From assembly GCA_000004695.1 (NCBI GenBank), contig CM000154.2, positions 4,544,001 to 4,608,000 of the forward strand: a stretch of DNA of 64,000 bases, given 5' to 3'. The translations under genes and the position numbers were made by a program. The notes under the pieces are model-generated. The model had not been told where the DNA came from, made no database searches, and saw only the letters and a list, made by a program, of their open reading frames with translations. This DNA is from Dictyostelium discoideum. Its lineage: Eukaryota. Every line of letters begins with the position of its first letter. Position 1 is the first letter of the stretch. This document shows, one piece after another, positions 16,099-64,000 of the stretch.

Positions 16099-17055
16099 GG
16101 AAAAATATATAAATAAACTTACCACCACCAACTACAACGAAATTTAATAAACGATCAATTTCTTTTTCAGGTTGACCAGGATAAGAAGCAGTTTCAAGAC
16201 AATCAATAATTTTATCTCTAATGTTACGAGTATCATTAATTTCTTTTAAGAAACAAGCATTCTCTTTTACACCTGGAATACCAAAGGTTTGATTATCGGC
16301 ACCGACACCAACGATCAAATGATCATACTCTAATTCGAATTCTGAAACTTCACCTTTTACAGCACTATTATCATAACATTTAACCTTTTTAGAAACTGGA
16401 TCAACTGATAAACATTCTGCTTCATAAAAAGTTGCATCCTCTGCATCTGCTCTCTTACAATACTTTCTAATTGGTTCCATAATTGATCTAACTTCAACTG
16501 TACCTGTTGTACCACCAACTAATAATGGTGTAAATAAAAAGTAATTTCTTTTTTTTTTTTTTTAAATTTAAAATAAATTAGTAAATAAGATTAAAATAAA
16601 AATAAAATTAAATAATTTAATTACCTTGGTGAAATGATTGTAACATCAAATAAATCAGTATGTAATTTTCTTAAGAAACATAATGAACCCCAACCAGTAC
16701 CAAGAATGACAACTTTTGGTCTTTTCTTTCTTTCACTTTCTGGTAATCTAGTTCTAAATTTATCAGTGACTGAATCGAAATCATCATTAACCACCATATC
16801 AATTATCCAAAAACCACCTAAACCTGCTACTGCTAATCCACCCCAAAATGCAAATTTATTCATTTTCTTTTTTGGTTCTTGTTCTTTTTGTTGTTGTTGT
16901 TGTTGATTTTGTTCATTATTATTACTATTATCAGTTGATGTCGAAAATCTTTGTATAAATTGTGTTTGATTATTTTTACATGCGACAATACGATTTGTTG
17001 ACACTGTTTTAATTAATTGATTTTTATTAACTTTTGAAAATGCTCTTGAAATCAT
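15095..17055 (-). CDS. Type II NADH:quinone oxidoreductase (NDH-2; alternative or external NADH dehydrogenase, mitochondrial). Exons 17055..16625, 16547..16123 and 15993..15095.
   Basis: - Exon 1 carries the first dinucleotide-binding motif, PKVVILGTGWGS...VTIISPR.
- Intron 1: donor AG|GTAATT, acceptor AAAAG|A. It restores ISP-R-NYFLFTPLL, the conserved NDH-2 motif.
- Intron 2: donor G|GTAAGT, acceptor TATTTTAG|GT. It restores the second Rossmann motif VVVGGGPSGVEFTAEL.
- The C-terminus (YLWRSVYFTKLLSVRNRALVSFDWLKSSVFGRDISR) is typical of the NDI1/NDE family.
- Splice phases check: 431 + 425 + 899 nt, about 584 aa. Confidence 0.85.
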
Positions 17056-49056: not shown

Positions 49057-49599
49057 TTAATTAATAGTTCTAAATAAATTTACATATTGATAAGAGGTAT
49101 GAAGATCTGAATAACTTTTTGGTAAAGTTGGATAAGCACTAAAATCAAAACTTGTTTGAATTGGTTCAGGGAATGGACCTAAATTTCCATTAATGAATTC
49201 AGATAATAACTTTGTACAATTGAAAGGAGAGGTAACGGGTGTTGAGCAAGCTGTATATTCCACTTCTACCAGTATACCTCTAATCTCAGTTCTGAATACA
49301 ATAGGACCAACTCTAATAATGAAATCACCCAATTCATATTTGCTTATTAATGCTTCAGTGGTTTGCCTCTTTTTATAGGAATTGGTTTTCTCTAGAATTG
49401 ATACCATCTCTCTATCAGTTTCGACGATTGTATCCCTGCAAACTGTAAAACATTTCTTTGGCTTTTCATCATACAATAGTAAATGAAATTCTCTTGGTAT
49501 TAAATTTGATCCATCTGGTACTCTCTCTAAATATAATGAACAATTAATTGTACCTGTTGATACTTTTATTCCTCCTAAAAATTCTATCCTTTTTGTCAT
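49057..49599 (-). CDS. med20: Mediator of RNA polymerase II transcription subunit 20 (MED20/TRFP-like).
   Basis: A 180-aa single-exon ORF. Its C-terminal half is collinear with MED20: [54 protein letters not shown] ... [11 protein letters not shown], against the human [28 protein letters not shown]...LLLEFLQSFLG...MVQYMELFNKI. Confidence 0.6.
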
Positions 49600-50694
49600 T
49601 TCTGGTAATTGACCTTTAAATGAGAATATACTTTTTTTTTTTTTTTAGTTTTGAATAAATAAATAAAAAAAAATAATAATTAAAAAACAAATAAAAACAA
49701 ATAAAAAATATATAATGATTTAAAATTTTAAAATTAATTAACTTTTTATTTTATTCTATTTTTTTTATTTTTTTAAGGAAATTTACCATTTATATCCCAT
49801 TTTTCTTAATTTATATTATTTTTTTTTTTTTTTTTTCTTATTTTAAATATAAGTGAATATGACTATAAATATATGTTTTATAAAAATAATTATGTTCAAA
49901 AAAAAAAAAAATAAAAAAAAAAAAAAAAAAAAAAAATTTAAAAATAAAAAAATAAAAAAAAAATTTAAAAAAAAAAAAAAAAAAATGTTTTTTTGGTGTG
50001 TTGAATCTTAATTAAAAATTAATATGCGGAGATAATGCCTAAATCAAAATCTCGTATGTTAATAAAAATTGGAATTTTGATTGATAGAGGAAAAAAAATT
50101 AAAAAAAAAAAAAAAAAAAAGGTTTTTTGTAAAAAACCATTCTATTAACTATGAATAGAGTAAAAAAATAATTTTATTTTATTTATTTATTAAATTTTAA
50201 AAAAAAAAAATTTTTTAAACCATATTAACTATTTGGGTTCGACAAAACCCAAACTTTTTCTTTTTTTTTTTTTTTTTTTTTCTTTTTTTTTTTAGGTTCC
50301 AGTTTTCGATTAAAAAAAAAAAAAAATTTTAATAATTTAATATATATATATTATTTTTTTTTTTTTTTTTCCATAAATAATATTATTTTAACATTATTTT
50401 TATAATACTCTCAGTTTAATAAAGCACACTTTTCAATCATTTTTAAAAAATAAAATTAAAAAAAATTAAAAAAAATAAAATAAAAAAAAAAAAATAAAAA
50501 ATAAAAAAAAAATTGGAAAAAAAAAAATTTTAAAAAAAAATTTTAAAATAAAATAAATTAAAATAAAAATAAAACAGTAAATAAAACAAATAGTAATAAT
50601 CAATATACAAAAAAATATAAAAAAAATCAAATATAAAACGTGGAAAAAAAAAAAAAAAATAAAATAATAATAAAATAAAATAAAAAAAAAGAAA

Positions 50695-50726
<32 letters not shown>

Positions 50727-51211
50727 AAAAAAAAAGGAAATTTTTTTTTTTTTTTTTTAAATTTTGGAAAAAAAAAAAAAAAAAAAAATTTTTTTTCATA
50801 AAAACCTTGAGGGTGGGGTTTTTGGGGGCCATATAAATAAATTTTTTAAAAAAAGGGGGGACCCGAAAATATCATAATCGCCCTTTTTATATATACCCAT
50901 ACCCCTACATTGATTCATACATACATCATACTTATACACATGCACACACATGCACCACATACACACATTGTTCACATACCGAAAAAAACAATAATAATAA
51001 AAAAAAAAAAAAAAATCAAATAAAATAAAAAAAAAAAAAAAAAAAAAAAAAAATCAATTCAAATTTGTTCGCTGTGAATCACATACAATAAATTTTTTTT
51101 TTTTTTTTTTAGGATACACAATACTAACCTCACTTCTTTTTTTCTAAAAATAATAATAAAATATTAAACGTTAAATAAAATAAAAACTACAATTATTACA
51201 ACACTTTACAG

Positions 51212-51567
51212 AGATGTTTTTAAAATTTTATTAATTGGTGATTCAGCAGTTGGAAAAACATCGTTATTATTAAGATTTGCAGTATGTATCTATTTTAAAG
51301 CATGAAAAAAATAAAAATAAAAATAAAAAAAATAAAATAAAATTCATGGTCAAATGGATTTAAAAAAAAAAAAAAAATATAAATATTAAATATCTTTTTT
51401 TTTTTTTAAAAAAAAAAAACTCAATTCATATATAGGATAACTCTTTTCAAGAGACTTCAGTAAATATGACTAGTGTCGATTATGTAAGTTTAGTTATCCA
51501 CTCTCAAATATTGTATTCTTCTTTCTTTCTCTCAAAAAAAAAAAAAAAATAAAAAAATAAAAAAATT

Positions 51568-51607
<40 letters not shown>

Positions 51608-52123
51608 CTTCCGCTCCTTAGCCAACGCTAACTTTTTTTTTTTTTTTTTTTTTTTTAGAAAAATAAAAATATAGTTATTGATGGTAGAACATTTAATTTA
51701 CAAATTTGGGATACAGCAGGACAAGAAAGATTTAGAACAATTACATCATCTTTTTATAGAGGAGCACATGGCGTTTTAGTTTGTTATGACGTAACAGATC
51801 AACTTACATATAATAACGTTAGATTATGGATGCAAGAAATTCAAAGATATGCAGTACTTGGCGTTAGTAGAGTTTTAGTTGGAAACAAATGCGATCTCGA
51901 AGATAGAAAATTGGTAAACACATCAATTGCAAGAGAATATGCCGATAGTCTTGGTATTCCATTCATGGAAGCTTCTGCTGCAACTGGTGTTAATGTTGAA
52001 GAGGCTTTCATGGCAATGGCAAATGAAATTTATAGAAATCATATGGGTGGTTCAAAACCTTCTGTTGTAAACCCAGGAAGTGGAGGTACCAGTAACACTG
52101 GTGGTAAAAAAAAATTTTGTTAA
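51212..52123 (+). CDS. Rab1-like small GTPase. Exons (>=51212)..51281, 51436..51483 and 51659..52123. The initiating exon is unresolved.
   Basis: P-loop [20 protein letters not shown] |GTATGT; [16 protein letters not shown] |GTAAGT; [47 protein letters not shown]...[12 protein letters not shown]...[22 protein letters not shown]... All five G boxes are intact. The ATG at 51214 is out of frame with the P-loop exon (it reads MFLKFY*). The P-loop frame is opened by an acceptor, TTTACAG|, at 51210/51211. So a short upstream start exon probably exists, and I could not place it. The C-terminus is ...GGKKKFC*, which ends in a single Cys rather than CC or CXC. Confidence 0.75.
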
Positions 52124-52635
52124 TAAAAAAAAAAAAAAAAAAAAAAAAAAACTAAATCAAATCAAACCAAACCAAACCAAACCAAACTAAATAACAACAA
52201 TCACAACCAACATACAATCAATAACACTCATAATAAAATGCAATATTAATAATCCTAAAAATAAAAATAAAAAAATAACACCATTTCACTTCGCTGGACC
52301 ACTTGGTTGATTGAAAAAAAAAAAAGAAAAAAAAAAAAAAAAAAGGAAAAAAAAAAAAAAAAACCTTTTACACAACTAAAAAAATAATACCAAAATTTAA
52401 AAAAAAAGGGGATAAAAAAAGCGCCGGGTTTTGGCCAATGGTTTAAAAAGTTTTATATAATGGCACCATCAAAAATTAAAAATTAAAAAAAAAAAAATTA
52501 AATTGTAAAATTTTACCTTAAAAAAAAAAAAAAAAAAAAATCTAAATCTATTTTTAAACATTTTTTTAAAACTATTTTTAACTTTTTTTATTTTTAATTT
52601 ATTTAATTTATTTAATTTTTTTTTTTAAAAATTTA

Positions 52636-54288
52636 TTAATGCATTAATTGACCACAATTATAAATATCTTGAATTAAAGTTGATTTTTGTAATGGTTTAC
52701 GAATATCATTTTCAAAGTTAACATCAACTCTAATTAATTTTCTAACAGTATTATTTTCATGAAGGATGGCACCTAAAGTTTTCCAAGTCATTTTTGGAAT
52801 GTTATATTTCTCTCTAATGTCATAGAGTATTTCATCTTCGGTACGATTGGCATACCAAATGTTAACACGATTCCATGCATGTTGACCCTCCTTACCTTTG
52901 TAATTCATTGCCTCTGGTAACTCTATGAAAGTGGTACGTGATGATATTAAATGATTGGATAGAGTATCTTCGAAATGTTGTTGAGTTTTCATATCGAACC
53001 AATGGAAAATTGATAAACAAAATTGGTACTCGTAGAGATGATTGTATTGTTGTGTCAATTGTTCAAACATTGATGGAAGTATACGAGTTTTGCATAGATA
53101 GTTATTGGTTAGGCCTAATTCATTGATTTTACTCTCGTGTATTGATGCGGCTGATTTATATTCGTTCATAGCTTCACCTTCAAAACTAAACACTGTTGCC
53201 TCTGGGAATTTCTGTGCCAATTGAATTGAAAAGAAACCTTGATTAGATCCATAATCAGCCATTTTACTACCTTCAACTTGTCTATTATCTAAATTTAATT
53301 CCCTTTCAATCATTCTCCATCTTGGTAAATTACGATATGGATGATATCCTTCAATCTTTTCACCTGGTATCTCTAATGCTCCAATCGACTCCAAATCACT
53401 CTTTGCATTCTTAAATAATATTTTCTCACTATCTCTCTTTGATTTTTGTACTTTTAATGGTGTTTGTGCTCCAACAAATATTAAATCAAATTCACTTTTT
53501 TTTTTTTTAAAAAAATAAAAAAAAAATATTAATTAGTATTAAATTTTATTATTATTATTATTATTATTGTTATTTATCTATTTATTTTTTACTTACGGTG
53601 GGAAAACAGTTTGAAAAATATATTGTGATCTTAAAACATGGAAATCAGATGTAACAATGAATAATCTTTGAACACCAATTTTTTGAAGATAGTTTAAAGT
53701 GAAACGTGCATTTTCAGCAGTATTGGATGAATTGTTTTCAATCAAGATGTCAAATGGTGAGACGTCATTTTGTAGAGCTATTTCATTCATTGCCTCAGCT
53801 TCTGAATTGAATGCTTTATCTGGATCACTTTGTTCTTCTTTACCTTTACCTGATAGAATTAATTTGGTTTTACCACCTTCAACATCATTCAATTTGGTAT
53901 AGTATTCACATGCCAATACAACACGCTCTTTTAAAATTTGTGTTGGCATACCATCTGAATGTAATGAATATCCTAATACAACAATTGCTGAATCATATTG
54001 TGTTACATTATCAATTTCACATGTACTTTGTTCTTCACTACATTGTTGAATTGTATTTTTATTAATTTTAATATTTTTATTATTGATATTATTATTGGCA
54101 TTATTATTATTATTGGCGTTATTATTATTATTATTATTATTATTATTGTTTTCAATATTCGATTTAAATGATACAAATGAAAGTAAATAAATTACTAGTA
54201 CTACTACAATTAAAATTCTAATTTTATTTTTGCTTGCGAATGCTGACACATTTTCAAATGTGTTTGACTGTTTTCTGTTATAAAACAT
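52636..54288 (-). CDS. Two-exon gene that fuses a DUF218 (YdcF/SanA/ElyC-like) domain to a class I SAM methyltransferase-like (FkbM-like motif I) domain. Exons 54288..53597 and 53494..52636. About 516 aa.
   Basis: - Exon 1: an N-terminal transmembrane helix (ILIVVVLVIYLLSFVSF), a poly-Asn linker, then DUF218: DSAIVVLGYSLHSDGMPTQILKERVVLACEYY...KLILSGKGKEE...SEAEAMNEIAL...ILIENNSSNTAENARFTLNYL...RLFIVTSDFHVLRSQYIF.
- Intron: donor CC|GTAAGT, acceptor AAAAAG|T (102 bp).
- Exon 2 is in phase: ...EFDLIFVGAQ...IPGEKIEGYHPYRNLPRWRMIERELNLDNRQVEGSKMADYGSNQGFFSIQLAQKFPEATVFSFEGE.... This gives motif I as DYGSNQGFFS, an acidic post-I residue, and LSIFHWFD as motif II-like. Confidence 0.65.
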
Positions 54289-54847
54289 TTTTTTTTTTTT
54301 TTTTTTTTTTTTTCTTTCTTTTTTTAATTTAAAAGAAAATTTAGATCTTTTCTTTTTTTATCTAATAATTATAATGATTTATTATTGGAAATAATTATAA
54401 AATAAATAAATAAAAAATAGGTGATAGTATGAAAAAAAAAAATGAAAAAAACAAATAAAAAAAAAGTTTTGTGTTTTGGTTGATAGATAATTTCCCAAAT
54501 AGATATAATAAATGGAAAAACGTCAATGAAAATTAAAAAAAAAAAAAAAACTAAAATTATAAAAAAAAACAAAATCAAAATTTTTTTTTATTTTTTTTTT
54601 ATTTTTTTTTTATTTTTTTAATTTTTTTTTTTTTTTTTTTTTAAAAACGTCCTTTACTTTTCCATTGAACAATATGGGTACGTTAATATTTTTAATAATT
54701 AAATTCACATACACACACAATTTTTATTTTTATTATTAATTTATTTTTATTTTTATTTTTTTTCTATTTTTTTATTTTTAAAAATAATATAGACAATAAA
54801 AATAATAAAAATAATAATTACTTAAAATTAAATCATGATCAAATAAA

Positions 54848-54878
<31 letters not shown>

Positions 54879-55252
54879 AATAGTAAATAAATTTAGTTTT
54901 AAATAAATTCCAAATAGGGATGAAAAATTAAAAATAAAAAAAAAAAACAATTGAAGATAATGACAACAAATATCCATTTTTTTAAAAATAAAAATTTACC
55001 TCCAATTTTCAAATTTTTTTTTTTTTTTTTTTATTTTTATTTTTTTTTTATTTTTATTTTTTATTTTTTATTTTTTTTTCTTTATTAAACACATTTTTTT
55101 TATTTTATTTTTTCTTTTTTTATTTTTTTCTTTTTCCACTATCCCATTTGTTTTATTTCATTTTATTTTATTTTGTTTTATTTTTTTTTTTATTTTTATT
55201 TTTAAATGATACAACTAATACTTTGCAAATAGTATTAATATACTAAGAAACC

Positions 55253-55294
<42 letters not shown>

Positions 55295-55307
55295 GGCAAA
55301 AGGGTTA

Positions 55308-55308
<1 letters not shown>

Positions 55309-55405
<97 letters not shown>

Positions 55406-55413
55406 TAATAATA

Positions 55414-55466
<53 letters not shown>

Positions 55467-55467
55467 T
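55309..55467. repeat. (AAT)n microsatellite of about 50 units, immediately 5' of the Myb-repeat gene.
   Basis: A near-perfect run with two interruptions (AAAAAT, AGT). Confidence 0.95.
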
Positions 55468-55541
55468 TTTTAAATAACTATGGTTTTGAAAATAATCTAT
55501 TGATAAATGATGAACCGACCACGCCTTTAAACTTTTTTGAT

Positions 55542-59525
<3,984 letters not shown>

Positions 59526-59658
59526 AAACAAAAAAAAAAAAAAAAACAAATAAAAAATTTAAAACCTTTTTTTTTTTTTTTTTTTATTGGATTGATTATT
59601 GACCTACAATATAAACGCAACTCGTCTTTTATTTTATTAATTAAATTCTTAACACTAA

Positions 59659-59944
59659 TTAATAACTACAATTAGAGACATCTACACACCAACAAAATCT
59701 AATTTTTTTATTTCTTATTTCTTGTTGTCTAAAAACAACAGGATCACTTATAATATTTCCTTTATAAAATTGAAGTGCCAATCCAATACCTCTTATAAAT
59801 GATTCTTGAATATTTATTGATTCTTTAGCTGACGTTTCAAAATAATGAATCCTACAAAAATAAGGATTGCTATAATTCCCATTATTAATTTTGTCTTGTT
59901 GTTTTCTACACCATTCATCAATTTTTTCTTTTGAAATAATTTCA

Positions 59945-60025
<81 letters not shown>

Positions 60026-60586
60026 TTATTTTTATTATTTATTAAATCTATTTTATTTCCCAAGATAATTATTGGAACATTTACATAATTTGATGATAAT
60101 AAGAAATCATTTAACCATTTTTCAAGATTTTCAAATGATGTTAAATTATTTAAATCAAAACATAAAAAACAACAATGAGCACCTCTATAAAATATATTTA
60201 AAGGATAATTTATATTATTCATTTTATTTGGAATATCCCAGATCTATATTTTAATATATACATTTAAATATTTTTAATTAATAATATTTGTTTTTGTTAT
60301 TAAATTGTTAAAAAAAAAAAAAAAAAAAAAAAATACAAACATTTAATATTATATGTTGACGTTTGAAATCAATTTCTTTTTGGTGTAAATAGTCCATTGG
60401 AGTTTTATTTTCATATTTTTTCCCTAAAAAACTTTTAATAATAGAACTCTTTCCAACTCCAGAGTCTCCACCTACAAAAATCTAATTAAATTATTTATTG
60501 TTAGTATTTCAAGGTAATTTTTTTAAAAAAAAAAATAATAATAATAACAGTTTGGCAACCTTTAAATTTATTTTTTTTTCATCCAT
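59659..60586 (-). CDS. Divergent Rab-like small GTPase. Exons 60586..60560, 60481..60341 and 60243..59659. The G3 box is degenerate (WDIPN instead of WDTAGQ). There is a poly-Asn insertion and no C-terminal CC/CXC.
   Basis: - Exon 1: MDEKKINLK, donor |GTTGCC. This follows the M-x-x-K-x-x-L-K|GT first-exon pattern of the three paralogs downstream.
- Exon 2: IFVGGDSGVGKSSIIKSFLGKKYENKTPMDYLHQKEIDFKRQHIILN.
- Exon 3: IWDIPNKMNNINYPLNIFYRGAHCCFLCFDLNNLTSFENLEKWLNDFL...VPIIILGNKIDL-(N)n-...YFETSAKESINIQESF...CVDVSNCSY*.
- G1, G4 and G5 are intact. The catalytic Gln and Gly of G3 are missing. Confidence 0.6.
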
Positions 60587-60999
60587 TATTTAATAGCTTT
60601 AAAAATATTTTATTCAATTGTTAGTTATTAAAATATTTTTTCTTTTTTTTTTTAAATTATTTATAAAAAAAAAAAAAAAAAAAAGAGATCAGGTTTCTCT
60701 GGTGTGAAAATCTCCAAAAAAAAAATAAAAAATGAAAATAAGAAAATTAAATAACTGGCATTAAAATAAAGCAATTTTCATTTCCCAAATGAGTTACTTT
60801 ATTAATTTTTGATAATTTTTAATTTTATTGTGAGAAGTATTATTAATATTGATATTAATGGACCAAATTTTTATTTTATACTTTTATTTTTGAATTTATT
60901 TAATTACTATTCATTACTATTAATTAAAAATTCGAGTGATTTACAATATCTTCTAATTATGGTTTATTTTTTTATTTTATTTTTTTTATTTTTTTTTTT

Positions 61000-61789
61000 C
61001 TAACAACAATATCCAGGTTTTACTTCTTGAAGTGAATCAATTGCAGGTGTGGTTATTGGTGGTTTTTGATTTTTATTATAATGTTCCAAAGCTAATTTAA
61101 GAGCAGCATTATATGATTCTGTAATATTTTGAGAAAACTTTGCAGATGTTTCAAAATAATGAACTCTATCAATAATTCCTTGATCTTCAATATTTTTACA
61201 CCATTGTTCAATTCTTTCTTTTGATATTGATTTATCAGTTCTTGGAATATCTTTTTTTGTACCTATTAAAACAAATGGAACTTTTCCAATACAGAACTTT
61301 CTAGCTTCGTCCATCCATTTATCAAGATTTTTAAATGATTTTTCATTGTGAATATCAAAACAAAGTGTATAACAATTTGACCAACGATAATAAATTGGGC
61401 TTAGGCCATTAAAACGTTCTTGACTACAGGTATCCCAAACCTTGTCATTATCATAATTATTATTATTATTATTATTTATTCCATTTTTTTTTTTTTTTTA
61501 ACATGTTGTTATTTATTCGTTTTTATGAGTTACAAACTTACATTTAAAATGACAGGTTCATTTTCAATGGTTAGGGTCTTTGAATAAAAAGATGGTGAAA
61601 CTGTGCACTCATTAATTTCATATTTTCCAGTAACAAAATTATTAAATACAGATGTTTTGCCTACATAACTGTCTCCAAGAGTAATAATCTTAAAAAATTT
61701 AAAAATAAATAGTTTAATTTTATATATAAAAAAATTAGAAATTATAAAAACTAATTAAATTATAATACCTTTAAACTTTTTTTACTCAT
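61000..61789 (-). CDS. Rab-like small GTPase, tandem paralog 1. Exons 61789..61769, 61688..61542 and 61440..61000. 203 aa, ending CC.
   Basis: MSKKSLK |GTATTA; [49 protein letters not shown] |GTAAGT; [24 protein letters not shown]...[14 protein letters not shown]...[27 protein letters not shown]...PGYCC*. The G3 box reads DTCSQ (A to C, G to S) and keeps its Gln. The C-terminal CC is the site for geranylgeranylation. Confidence 0.75.
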
Positions 61790-62074
61790 TTTACCTTTCA
61801 ATAACTTTTAAAAAAAAAAATAAAAAAAAAAAAAATAAATTAAAAAAAAAAATTAAAAACTCGCAAGAGAACAAAGATCTCTATTTTTTTTTTTTTTTTT
61901 TTTTTTTTGTTTTTATAAATAGAATTTTTACAATAGTGGTGGGAATTAGACAAAACTTAATTTTTTATACATTTTCAGTTTTTTTTATTTTTTTTCAAAG
62001 ATAACTATCCAAAAAAATGAATGTGTATATTCATAAATTTTGAAAATAATTTAATAATTTTGAAATGATTAAAT

Positions 62075-62114
<40 letters not shown>

Positions 62115-62123
<9 letters not shown>

Positions 62124-62770
62124 TGTTCCAACTTTGACTTCTTCCGGCGGACCAATTGGACGAATAATTGAGATATATTTAACTATACTATAATGTTCCA
62201 AAGCTAGTTTTGCAGCAACATTATATAATTCTGTAACATTTTGAGAAAGTTTTGCAGATGTTTCAAAATAATGAACTTTATCTATAATTCCTTGATCTTC
62301 AATATTTTTACACCATTGTTCAATTCTTGCCTTTGATATTGATTTATCAGTTCTAGGAATATCACTTTTTGTACCTACTAAAACAAATGGAATATTTCCA
62401 TAGCAGTACTTTATAATTTCATCCATCCACTTTCCAAGATTAATAAATGATTCTTCATTGTGAATATCAAAACAAAGTGTATAACAATTTGCACCACGAA
62501 AATAAGGTGGACTAAATGCTTGAAAACGTTCTTGACCACAGGTATCCCAAACCTAATACAATATAATTTATAATTAATAAAACAGTTTTATTTTATTTTT
62601 TTGAATGAATTATACACTTACCATTAAAAACACATGTTTATTTTCAACCTTTAATTCCTTTATAAAATAGTCAGGTCCAATTGAGGGTGGCCTATTATAT
62701 CGATATTCTCCATTAACATAATGATAAAAGAGAGATGTTTTACCAACATTACTGTCTCCAAGAGTTATAA

Positions 62771-62810
<40 letters not shown>

Positions 62811-62894
62811 AGAAAAAAAAAAATTTCAATAAAATAAGAAATTAATATATAATATATTAATCAATACCTTTAACATTGTTTTTTCTTCTTTCAT
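62115..62894 (-). CDS. Rab-like small GTPase, tandem paralog 2. Exons 62894..62868, 62771..62622 and 62552..62115. 205 aa, ending CC.
   Basis: MKEEKTMLK |GTATTG; [50 protein letters not shown] |GTAAGT; [24 protein letters not shown]...[14 protein letters not shown]...[27 protein letters not shown]...VGTCC*. All three introns are in phase. Confidence 0.75.
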
Positions 62895-63179
62895 TTTTAA
62901 ATATTATATTATATATTAATGATTAAGTTTAATTTTTAAAAAAAAAAAAAAAAAAAGGGTTTAAATGATATTTTTTATTTTTAATTGTTGAGAGAGCCAA
63001 GATCTCTTTTTTTTATTTACAAAATTTAGAAAAAAATAAAAATCTGAAATATTTGGAATGTTGTTTGGATATTTCTATTATTTTTAAAAATAGAAAACAA
63101 CACCCATGAAAATCATAATTTGAACTTTTATTATTATTATTATTATTATTTATTTTTAAAATTCTACCACAACCCTAAT

Positions 63180-63518
63180 ATCCCATTCGATGATGCAGGG
63201 TGGAAATATTTATTGAATTTTTCTGTTTATTTTTACACCATTGTTCGATTCTTTCTTTTGAAATTGATTTTTCAGTTCTTTCAATATCACTTTTTGTACC
63301 TATTAAAACAAATGGAACTTTCTCATCAACTAATGTATTTGCTTCTAATTCTTTTATCCAATAAATAAGATTATTAAATGATTGTTCATTATGAATACCA
63401 AAACAAAGTACACAACAATCTACATCTCTATAATATATTTTACTATCACCGAATGCACTACCATGTGTATTCCATAACTTTTCATTTTTATTGATTTATT
63501 ATTATTACTATCCATTTT

Positions 63519-63555
<37 letters not shown>

Positions 63556-63830
63556 CAAATTGGTACTTACTTGAAATGATACTGTTTCATTATCAATGAT
63601 TATCTCCTTGTAGTGAAAATCTAGTGCAATTGAGTAACCCCATTGAAAAATAGGTCTACCCATATATAATTCTTAATAATCGATAATTTACCCACCATTC
63701 TATCACCAATTGTTATTATCTTGTAAAAAAAATGCATATGCTTTAATACTTATATCTGATTTTAATAAGAATTTTTTTTTTTTTTTTTTAAAATACCTTT
63801 AAAAGTTTTCTTTTATTATCCATCACTATT
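63180..63830 (-). pseudogene. Degenerate third copy of the Rab-like gene. The P-loop is mutated, there is a frameshift, the G3 box is lost and the C-terminus is replaced.
   Basis: - The first exon is intact in form: MDNKRKLLK |GTATTT (63831..63805).
- The P-loop exon reads [18 protein letters not shown] (GDSxVGKTS has become GDRMVGKLS), then shifts frame to [31 protein letters not shown] |GTAAGT.
- Last exon: [84 protein letters not shown], after which the sequence diverges ([17 protein letters not shown]). The G5 SAK box and the CC tail are gone. Confidence 0.55.
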
Positions 63831-64000
63831 ATCTGATTAATTTGAAACTTGAAAAAAAAAAAAAAAAAAAAAAAAAAAGTGAGAGAAAGAAAAGTAAAAA
63901 AAGTCAGAGTAAGAAAAGCATGCTTTTGAACTTTTTTTTTTTTATTTTTTTTTTTTTTTTGACCACAGAGAAAAAAAAAAGAAAAAAAAAATTTGGTTGT

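Follow-up and report, generated by a model that had tools for sequence, protein, structure and literature searches.

What has happened to the catalytic motifs of four Rab-like GTPase genes that lie side by side on the minus strand of Dictyostelium discoideum contig CM000154.2 (GCA_000004695.1)? We analysed positions 4,544,001 to 4,608,000 of this contig, a stretch of 64,000 nucleotides referred to here as the window, in which the G3 box (DxxGQ) of these genes reads DTCSQ, DTCGQ, DIPN and NTHGS. The original prediction took the four copies to be an array showing stepwise degeneration of this box and ending in a pseudogene. In DNA with ~20% G+C, poly-A/T tracts and short GT..AG introns, all four genes could be rebuilt on the minus strand with three exons each and with exactly these G3 motifs. 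Our analysis leads to a different account: the region at 59.6-64.0 kb is probably where a tandem cluster of small-GTPase genes derived from Rab7 has its 3' end, and each subfamily of this cluster has a signature of its own that is stable under purifying selection.

The count of four genes is a consequence of the window edge, which cuts the array. Window positions 64000-52075 align collinearly, at 99.5% identity, with a public D. discoideum chromosome (L001), on which the array continues upstream of 64000, giving nine Ras-family genes on the same strand rather than the four first proposed: RabN2-RabK2-Q1ZXB8-RabK1-RabN1-RabK3-RabL-RabM-DIPN gene. The array is flanked by an HD-domain gene on one side and by a convergent gene of ~1,400 aa on the other. 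Three of the four window genes are known reference genes of D. discoideum AX4 (RabL, RabM, and RabK3), and the names of RabK3, RabK1, RabK2, RabN1, RabN2 and Q1ZXB8 were obtained by exact sequence look-up among AX4 entries. The fourth, here called the DIPN gene after its G3 box, has no AX4 protein entry by exact look-up with models of 250, 213 and 187 aa in the collection searched, and dictyBase may hold a model. The Ras-family features do not arise by chance, because the scores against Pfam Ras (PF00071) of RabL (144 bits), RabM (129), RabK1 (107), the DIPN protein (85) and the RabK3 reference model (60) all lie far above the gathering score of 21.6 bits.

We rebuilt the genes of the syntenic region in five other genomes from annotated coordinates and product lengths. 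The array contains four subfamilies, namely RabN, RabK, RabL/M and a D-type represented in the window by the DIPN gene. Three genes are present in D. firmibasis (N, K, and L/M type), whereas D. dimigraforme has N, K, an insertion and the L/M type together with a frameshifted D-type relic (L006 ~16330-16460). D. citrinum has exactly four genes, one per type, and nine or more are found both in D. cf. discoideum and in a divergent assembly labelled 'D. discoideum' (GCA_054859385.1, here ACTFIR). The birth-and-death evolution inferred earlier from the window is thus borne out by copy number. In a neighbour-joining tree, RabK (bootstrap 100), RabN (89) and the D-type (100, on a long stem) form separate clades. 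The four window genes span three subfamilies (RabL/M, RabK, and DIPN types), all of them old clades with a single-copy D. citrinum orthologue. The ratio of nonsynonymous to synonymous substitution rates (dN/dS) is 0.32-0.43 for RabK, 0.32-0.49 for RabN and about 0.45-0.5 for RabL. Stepwise degeneration is not supported, because the odd motifs are subfamily hallmarks of intact genes.

Two further observations concern RabN. RabN1 (L001 8048-8801) has precisely lost its second intron, which is present in RabN of D. firmibasis and D. dimigraforme. The reference model of RabN2 (184 aa, start MLGDYRSGK) omits an upstream exon 1, MEKANKKIK (L001 3480-3760), which is present and followed by a repeat-rich intron, and RabN2 is probably full length.

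The RabK subfamily shows how such hallmarks are inherited. Its signature consists of a P-loop with GK-L, the G3 box [N/S]THGS and the C-terminus ICW(W). The P-loop GDRxVGKLS is found in the intact RabK1 and in the orthologues of D. citrinum, D. cf. discoideum and D. dimigraforme, while D. firmibasis retains GKSS; the G3 box WNTHGS is shared by intact RabK1 and D. cf. discoideum. Ordered by species, the states are GKS, WDSHGQ and ..YYCC in D. firmibasis, GKL, WDTHGN and ..SICW in D. dimigraforme (protein P0147, left out of the RabK dN/dS), GKL, WSTHGS and ..GICW in D. citrinum, and GKL, WNTHGS and ..GICWW in D. discoideum. All orthologues of this four-species series have open frames and conserved G4 and G5 motifs. 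The D. firmibasis state is ancestral, because RabN and RabL/M hold the canonical states. Progressive motif loss is therefore seen in this array, but it runs along RabK orthologues between species and not along the copies within the window. In RabK1, the P-loop Ser/Thr and the Asp and Gln of the DxxGQ box are lost together, and without both Mg ligands its nucleotide binding is probably weak or nil.

The 3' end of the AX4 reference model of RabK1 (213 aa, ending in ..KPKGIFQIMIFMGVVFYF) may be wrong, because it is the ICW(W) end that the other species share; the model is apparently spliced beyond the conserved stop after ..GICWW, and the downstream segment that it uses also occurs after RabK3 (window 63100-63160).

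RabK3, the copy at 63 kb, occupies the predicted locus with slightly different limits (63175-63823 instead of 63180-63830). Its unusual P-loop and its NTHGS box had been taken for damage, yet both GK-L-S and NTHGS are inherited from the intact RabK lineage. The P-loop, GDRMVGKLS, has a Leu in place of the Mg-binding Ser/Thr. The real lesions were read from a DNA alignment with RabK1 and the ACTFIR orthologue, and they confirm that this copy is frameshifted. Exon 2 measures 149 nt, which breaks the frame and makes the C-terminus aberrant. The slip of +2 bp (TA) in exon 2 changes AAT--TATATGGG to AATTATATATGGG and shifts the frame after the P-loop; it is also present in L001 and absent from D. 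cf. discoideum (L003) and ACTFIR (L004). The C-terminus had been described as replaced, and aberrant it is, but in fact it reflects a clean in-frame deletion of 123 bp (41 codons, alignment columns 660-782), which removes all of G5, together with a scrambling of the last ~30 bp, where -4 bp, +3 bp and clustered substitutions turn an end in ..IEPEKPKGICWW before the stop into ..TLHHRMGY. The string at the deletion junction occurs in the window and L001 only. The ACTFIR orthologue has none of the three lesions and encodes an intact RabK of 203 aa that ends in GICWW.

A collapsed repeat or assembly error had been named as a way in which the G3 differences could mislead. We reject it: RabL and RabM agree exactly with reference proteins, L001, an independent assembly, is identical to the window over RabK3, and the orthologues carry the same motifs. 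The RabK3 lesions are not assembly errors either, since L001 is 100% identical to the window across 745 bp of the gene, all three lesions included. Strain polymorphism was likewise rejected as a description, as the genome with the intact copy differs by ~4-6% everywhere. Because these mismatches extend to the flanking genes, RabK3 died in the AX4-type lineage after its split from the sister lineage. RabK3 reads as a unitary pseudogene of the RabK subfamily in the window's lineage, and we infer that it is non-functional.

With regard to ACTFIR itself, its locus (L004) aligns to window positions 49186-63885 at 88-92% identity, with about 4-6% mismatches also in the flanking genes. This is far above the expectation between strains and suggests that the assembly represents a cryptic sister species. 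A similar fate to that of RabK3 may have befallen RabK2 (Q1ZXB7, 147-aa reference model; L001 4262-5060), which has lost its 5' part in the AX4-type genome: an exon-2 remnant stays, but nothing is left of exon 1 or of the P-loop's first half. In ACTFIR, RabK2 has kept its full length (L004 1065-1799). Of the RabK copies in the AX4-type lineage, two out of three (RabK3 and RabK2) thus look dead.

As predicted, the protein of the DIPN gene lacks the catalytic Gln and the C-terminal CC and contains a poly-Asn insert. Its G3 box reads DIPNK in place of DxxGQ, its G4 motif is NKID and its C-terminus is ..FCWCVDVSNCSY. WDIPN occurs in four intact D-type copies (the window, ACTFIR, and two copies of D. 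cf. discoideum), and D. citrinum has WEMPS. The D-type gene is intact in these five copies from four genomes, the orthologues including P0005 (D. cf. discoideum), P0007 (D. citrinum) and a full-length ACTFIR copy. Changes in the P-loop are conservative only (D. citrinum shows S/T exchanges at two sites, and the second copy of D. cf. discoideum has V for G), whereas the Asn run varies from about 6 to more than 30 residues among orthologues. The tail FCWC..DCxY is conserved, with cysteines that are non-canonical for Rab prenylation. In D. citrinum (L002 10001-10741), intron 2 is lost precisely at the predicted exon 2/3 junction, which independently supports the three-exon splice model. Automated annotation has mis-spliced or truncated the D-type genes at L003 5837-6736 and L004 10001-10486 by skipping the P-loop exon or starting at an internal Met, and the full three-exon genes are intact at both loci despite this. 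Coordinates for the window are collected below.

Table. Rab-like genes of the window, their motifs and lesions, and neighbouring genes (window positions).
Feature	Position	Strand	Details
DIPN gene (D-type, fourth subfamily)	59659..60586	-	exons 60586-60560 / 60481-60341 / 60243-59659; 250 aa
DIPN gene P-loop GGDSGVGKSS	60443..60472	-	canonical; GDSGVGKSS in the protein; in all five D-type copies
DIPN gene G3 / start of switch II, W-D-I-P-N	60226..60240	-	Gly and catalytic Gln of DxxGQ both missing
DIPN gene G4 NKID	60046-60057	-
DIPN gene 26-Asn run	59944..60021	-	loop after G4
DIPN gene G5 ETSAK	59824..59838	-	HYFE[TI]SAKESINI conserved in all five copies
RabM, Q54FK8	61000..61789	-	exons 61789-61769 / 61688-61542 / 61440-61000; 202 aa; exact reference match
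RabM G3 WDTCSQ	61420-61434	-
RabL, Q54FK7, 'GTP binding protein RARE7L'	62115..62894	-	exons 62894-62868 / 62771-62622 / 62552-62115; 204 aa; exact reference match
RabL G3 WDTCGQ	62532-62546	-
RabK3, Q1ZXB9 / XP_001134506.1	63175..63823	-	exons 63823-63797 / 63719-63571 / 63477-63175; frame broken
RabK3 P-loop GDRMVGKLS	63681..63707	-
RabK3 G3 NTHGS codons	63457..63471	-
RabK3 lesion 1, +2-bp TA slip	63659..63671	-	exon 2
RabK3 lesion 2, 123-bp deletion	63223..63237	-	deletion junction
RabK3 lesion 3, scrambled 3' end	63175..63204	-
Convergent neighbour of DIPN gene	55500-59525	+	1,341-codon open reading frame
Canonical multi-exon Rab gene	51200-52125	+	end ..GGKKKFC; outside tandem array

The DIPN gene is not a decayed RabL or RabM copy, because its protein is only about 30-36% identical to either. 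It is under purifying selection and is no decaying duplicate. D-type dN/dS is 0.52-0.59, so that constraint is weaker than in RabK or RabN without being neutral, and in the comparison with D. citrinum the bootstrap interval for the ratio of nonsynonymous to synonymous differences per site (pN/pS) lies below 1. Among 4000 neutral substitution simulations at the observed synonymous divergence, none left the D-type open reading frame (ORF) open, and the indels between orthologues are all in frame. Conservation is concentrated in the nucleotide-binding motifs, with 19 of 24 invariant columns in G1, G4 and G5 against 86 of 194 elsewhere (Fisher p = 0.002), while switch II has 4 invariant columns out of 15 and is variable in length. 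An AlphaFold2 (AF2) model of the orthologue P0005, which is 78% identical to the window's DIPN protein, has a predicted template modelling score (pTM) of 0.77 and a complete G-domain, with low confidence only in the switch regions, the Asn-rich loop and the tail. The top Foldseek matches of this model are Rab7, Rab1 and Rab8 (target-normalised template modelling score about 0.8), its structural neighbours are all Rabs, and the best solved matches are the Rab7 structures 3law, 5z2m, 7f6j and 1vg9. The backbone amide of the DxxG Gly senses the gamma-phosphate. As this glycine and the catalytic Gln are missing, the DIPN protein would not be a normal switch; it probably keeps the guanine-nucleotide pocket and binds nucleotide, but without hydrolysis or normal switching, and it is plausibly a pseudo- or atypical GTPase.

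As stated in the original prediction, RabL and RabM both keep a double-cysteine motif for putative prenylation at the C-terminus (RabL ..GTCC, RabM ..GYCC). The P-loops are GDSNVGKT in RabL and GDSYVGKT in RabM, and RabL, RabM and RabK1 share a G4 motif of TKSD or TKKD (TKSD in RabL) and the G5 motif ETSAK. Among the window genes and RabK1, only RabL retains the D, G and Q of the G3 box DxxGQ, and it is probably an ordinary prenylated GTPase. The G3 box of the RabL/M type is WDT[C/F/Y]xQ, and its DxxG glycine has been lost repeatedly: it is a Ser in RabM of AX4 and of ACTFIR (P0003), in one D. cf. discoideum copy and in D. firmibasis, and an Asp in two other copies. RabM is probably a nucleotide binder that is defective in hydrolysis and switching. 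A common first-exon pattern M-x-x-K-x-x-L-K/GT had also been proposed for the four window genes; the '..LK/GT' ending occurs in all of them, but the rest does not, as exon 1 of RabM is MSKKSLK (7 aa).

These observations are consistent with the following history. An ancestral cluster RabN - RabK - RabL/M would have lain between the HD-domain gene and the ~1,400-aa gene, and the DIPN type would have joined it ahead of the divergence of D. dimigraforme, D. citrinum and D. discoideum. The D-type predates the split of D. dimigraforme and was lost there, because a frameshifted relic is present; the D. firmibasis locus has neither space for nor trace of a D-type gene. Where the D-type sits in the array, the intron positions that it shares and a slightly higher similarity hint at an origin from a RabL/M-type duplicate. 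Segmental duplications of N-K-L units would then have brought D. discoideum to nine genes, after which individual copies died, with RabK3 disabled in the window and RabK2 5'-truncated. Each subfamily would keep its own non-canonical nucleotide-pocket signature under purifying selection, and RabM, RabK1 and the DIPN protein would act as 'broken switches'. While the structure of the cluster, its duplications and losses, the conserved signatures and the RabK3 lesions can be read in the genomes, the biochemical part of this history is predicted from the established roles of the Ras residues S17, D57, G60 and Q61.

The D. dimigraforme relic (L006 16330-16460, ..YRGTDCYFLCFDL / NNLTTFENLGKWL..) has the RabL/M-type gene on one side and the large convergent gene on the other.

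How well does this history compare with other explanations? If the motifs DTCSQ, DTCGQ, DIPN and NTHGS formed a graded series of catalytic decay after duplication, ending in a pseudogene, one would indeed expect all four motifs, a disabled last copy and a copy number that varies between species, as observed. However, the copies fall into three clades that are each conserved on their own, intact RabK genes from four species carry NTHGS and GK-L, WDIPN or WEMPS is kept with an open frame in five copies, the DIPN gene is too distant from RabL and RabM to be a recent degenerate, and the actual lesions of the pseudogene lie elsewhere, in the slip, the deletion and the 3' end. We regard a graded series as highly improbable. 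It is similarly improbable that RabK3 works as the truncated 148-aa protein of the reference annotation (model P0149): although RefSeq and UniProt list the gene as protein-coding and the Pfam Ras score of the model is still 60 bits, that model is made by splicing around the P-loop region and is devoid of G5, three independent lesions set the gene apart from an intact orthologue and an intact paralogue, and a G-domain without beta1/P-loop and beta6/alpha5 would be unlikely to fold. That the DIPN and RabK genes are neutrally decaying relics whose frames are open by chance is hardly credible. The dN/dS values are high for Rabs, the D-type gene survives only as a relic in D. dimigraforme, where it is dead, and it is absent from D. 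firmibasis; against this stand the failure of every simulated neutral ORF to survive, the in-frame indels, the preferential conservation of nucleotide-binding motifs (p = 0.002) and a bootstrap interval for pN/pS that excludes 1.

A more serious alternative, which we still consider unlikely, is that RabM, RabK1 and the DIPN protein are working GTPases that use alternative residues or residues supplied by a GTPase-activating protein (GAP), with altered kinetics or partner specificity. Rap proteins, which lack Gln61, rely on the GAP. G4 and G5 are conserved in all three proteins and G1 in RabM and the DIPN type, purifying selection acts on all of them, and an atypical yet active Rab has been reported from Amoebozoa (EhRabX3, PMC8514894). 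RabK1, in contrast, lacks the P-loop Ser/Thr and the DxxG Asp and Gln at once, and the DIPN type lacks the DxxG Gly and has a switch II that varies in length and sequence. Besides the EhRabX3 precedent, several points weigh against a cluster of stable subfamilies with partly broken switches. RabK3 is annotated as coding in both databases, the long branch of the D-type makes its placement relative to N, K and L/M uncertain in the re-rooted tree, whose support values stop short of the deepest nodes, and the cluster-wide dN/dS of 0.3-0.6 is high for Rabs and indicates weak constraint, with estimates by the Nei-Gojobori method (NG86) that are crude at ~20% GC. Word-seeded protein searches, which may miss distant relatives, returned the family from no species other than D. 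discoideum, D. cf. discoideum, D. citrinum, D. dimigraforme and D. firmibasis. Lastly, nucleotide binding, hydrolysis, prenylation and transcription of the cluster genes are all deduced from the DNA. The tandem cluster with stable subfamily signatures nevertheless remains our preferred reading.

Outside the tandem array, the canonical Rab gene at 51200-52125 keeps its syntenic place beyond the far end of the cluster in each of the six genomes. The convergent neighbour of the DIPN gene contains a long poly-Gln (CAA)n tract and has orthologues of 1,316-1,560 aa in every species, with a Pfam match on record for none.

Three of the four window genes were already annotated, and lineage-specific Rab expansion, atypical Rabs and pseudoRabs, pseudoGTPases and birth-and-death evolution are known phenomena. 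What is new is the reading of RabK3 as a pseudogene, a fourth subfamily that is conserved yet apparently lacks annotation, and an orthologue series of motif loss. In the annotation of the AX4-type genome, a pseudogene flag is warranted for RabK3 and probably also for RabK2, and the conserved fourth-type gene at 59.66-60.59 kb seemingly has no reference protein model and is mis-called in newer assemblies. The very residues by which a GTPase is defined (P-loop Ser/Thr, DxxG Asp and Gly, catalytic Gln, and prenylation cysteines) differ between orthologues at a dS of about 0.4-0.5, which makes the cluster a compact natural experiment in which the transition from switch to pseudo-switch is testable in a tractable organism. 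It is a speculative and rather doubtful possibility that, within very short evolutionary distances, the cluster shows a working Rab7-like GTPase turning into pseudoGTPases, with the intermediates alive in sister species. On this view, the RabK series would be accompanied by a D-type that keeps a nucleotide pocket but no switch II and by the recurrent loss of the DxxG glycine among RabL/M copies. If the proteins were scaffolds or decoys independent of nucleotide state in the phagosomal/lysosomal Rab7 pathway of this bacterial predator, the turnover, the copy-number variation and the relaxed but real constraint would reflect an arms-race type of selection.

Among known systems, the best sequence matches outside the cluster are Rab7, the late-endosomal/lysosomal Rab, and Ypt7, with 30-41% identity to Rab7s. 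Rab7 and the cluster proteins share their G-domain topology, the C-terminal CC is present in RabL and RabM, and RabL bears the GenBank name RARE7L. Still, the cluster genes are not orthologues of Rab7 (D. discoideum Rab7A, human RAB7A) and form separate long-branched clades away from the Rab7 outgroups. They also differ in a G4 motif of TKxD in N, K, L and M, in a G3 box that is non-canonical in most members and in a family-specific segment starting with [PE][RK]T[DE] after G4 in all members. Only three Rab7 copies are mentioned for D. discoideum in a phylogeny of Rab7/Rab9, and our literature search returned nothing specific to Dictyostelium RabK, L, M or N. From the AX4 reference paralogues our interpretation differs in that RabK3 and RabK2, annotated as coding, are read as disabled.

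GTPase-deficient small G proteins such as Rnd and RhoH have lost catalytic and/or Mg-binding residues while their fold was kept under selection. PseudoGTPases are classified by the absence of nucleotide binding (class i) or of hydrolysis (class ii) (PMC12490416), and in class i proteins such as AAGAB and ArlEM catalytic and/or Mg-binding residues are lost and the fold is retained under selection (PMC12490416, PMC13393502). The resemblance of the cluster proteins to these classes is a prediction at the level of motifs. A further parallel comes from Entamoeba histolytica, in which EhRabX3 and EhRabX10 are lineage-specific Rabs whose G motifs are not conserved but whose P-loop NTPase fold is retained, EhRabX3 being reported as an active hydrolase despite its non-canonical motifs (PMC8514894). 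Like the genes described here, these pseudoRabs are amoebozoan members of a lineage-specific Rab expansion, but they are unrelated in sequence and of independent origin. What distinguishes the Dictyostelium cases from those of Entamoeba is that they lie in one tandem array and that sister species allow the loss of their motifs to be put in order.

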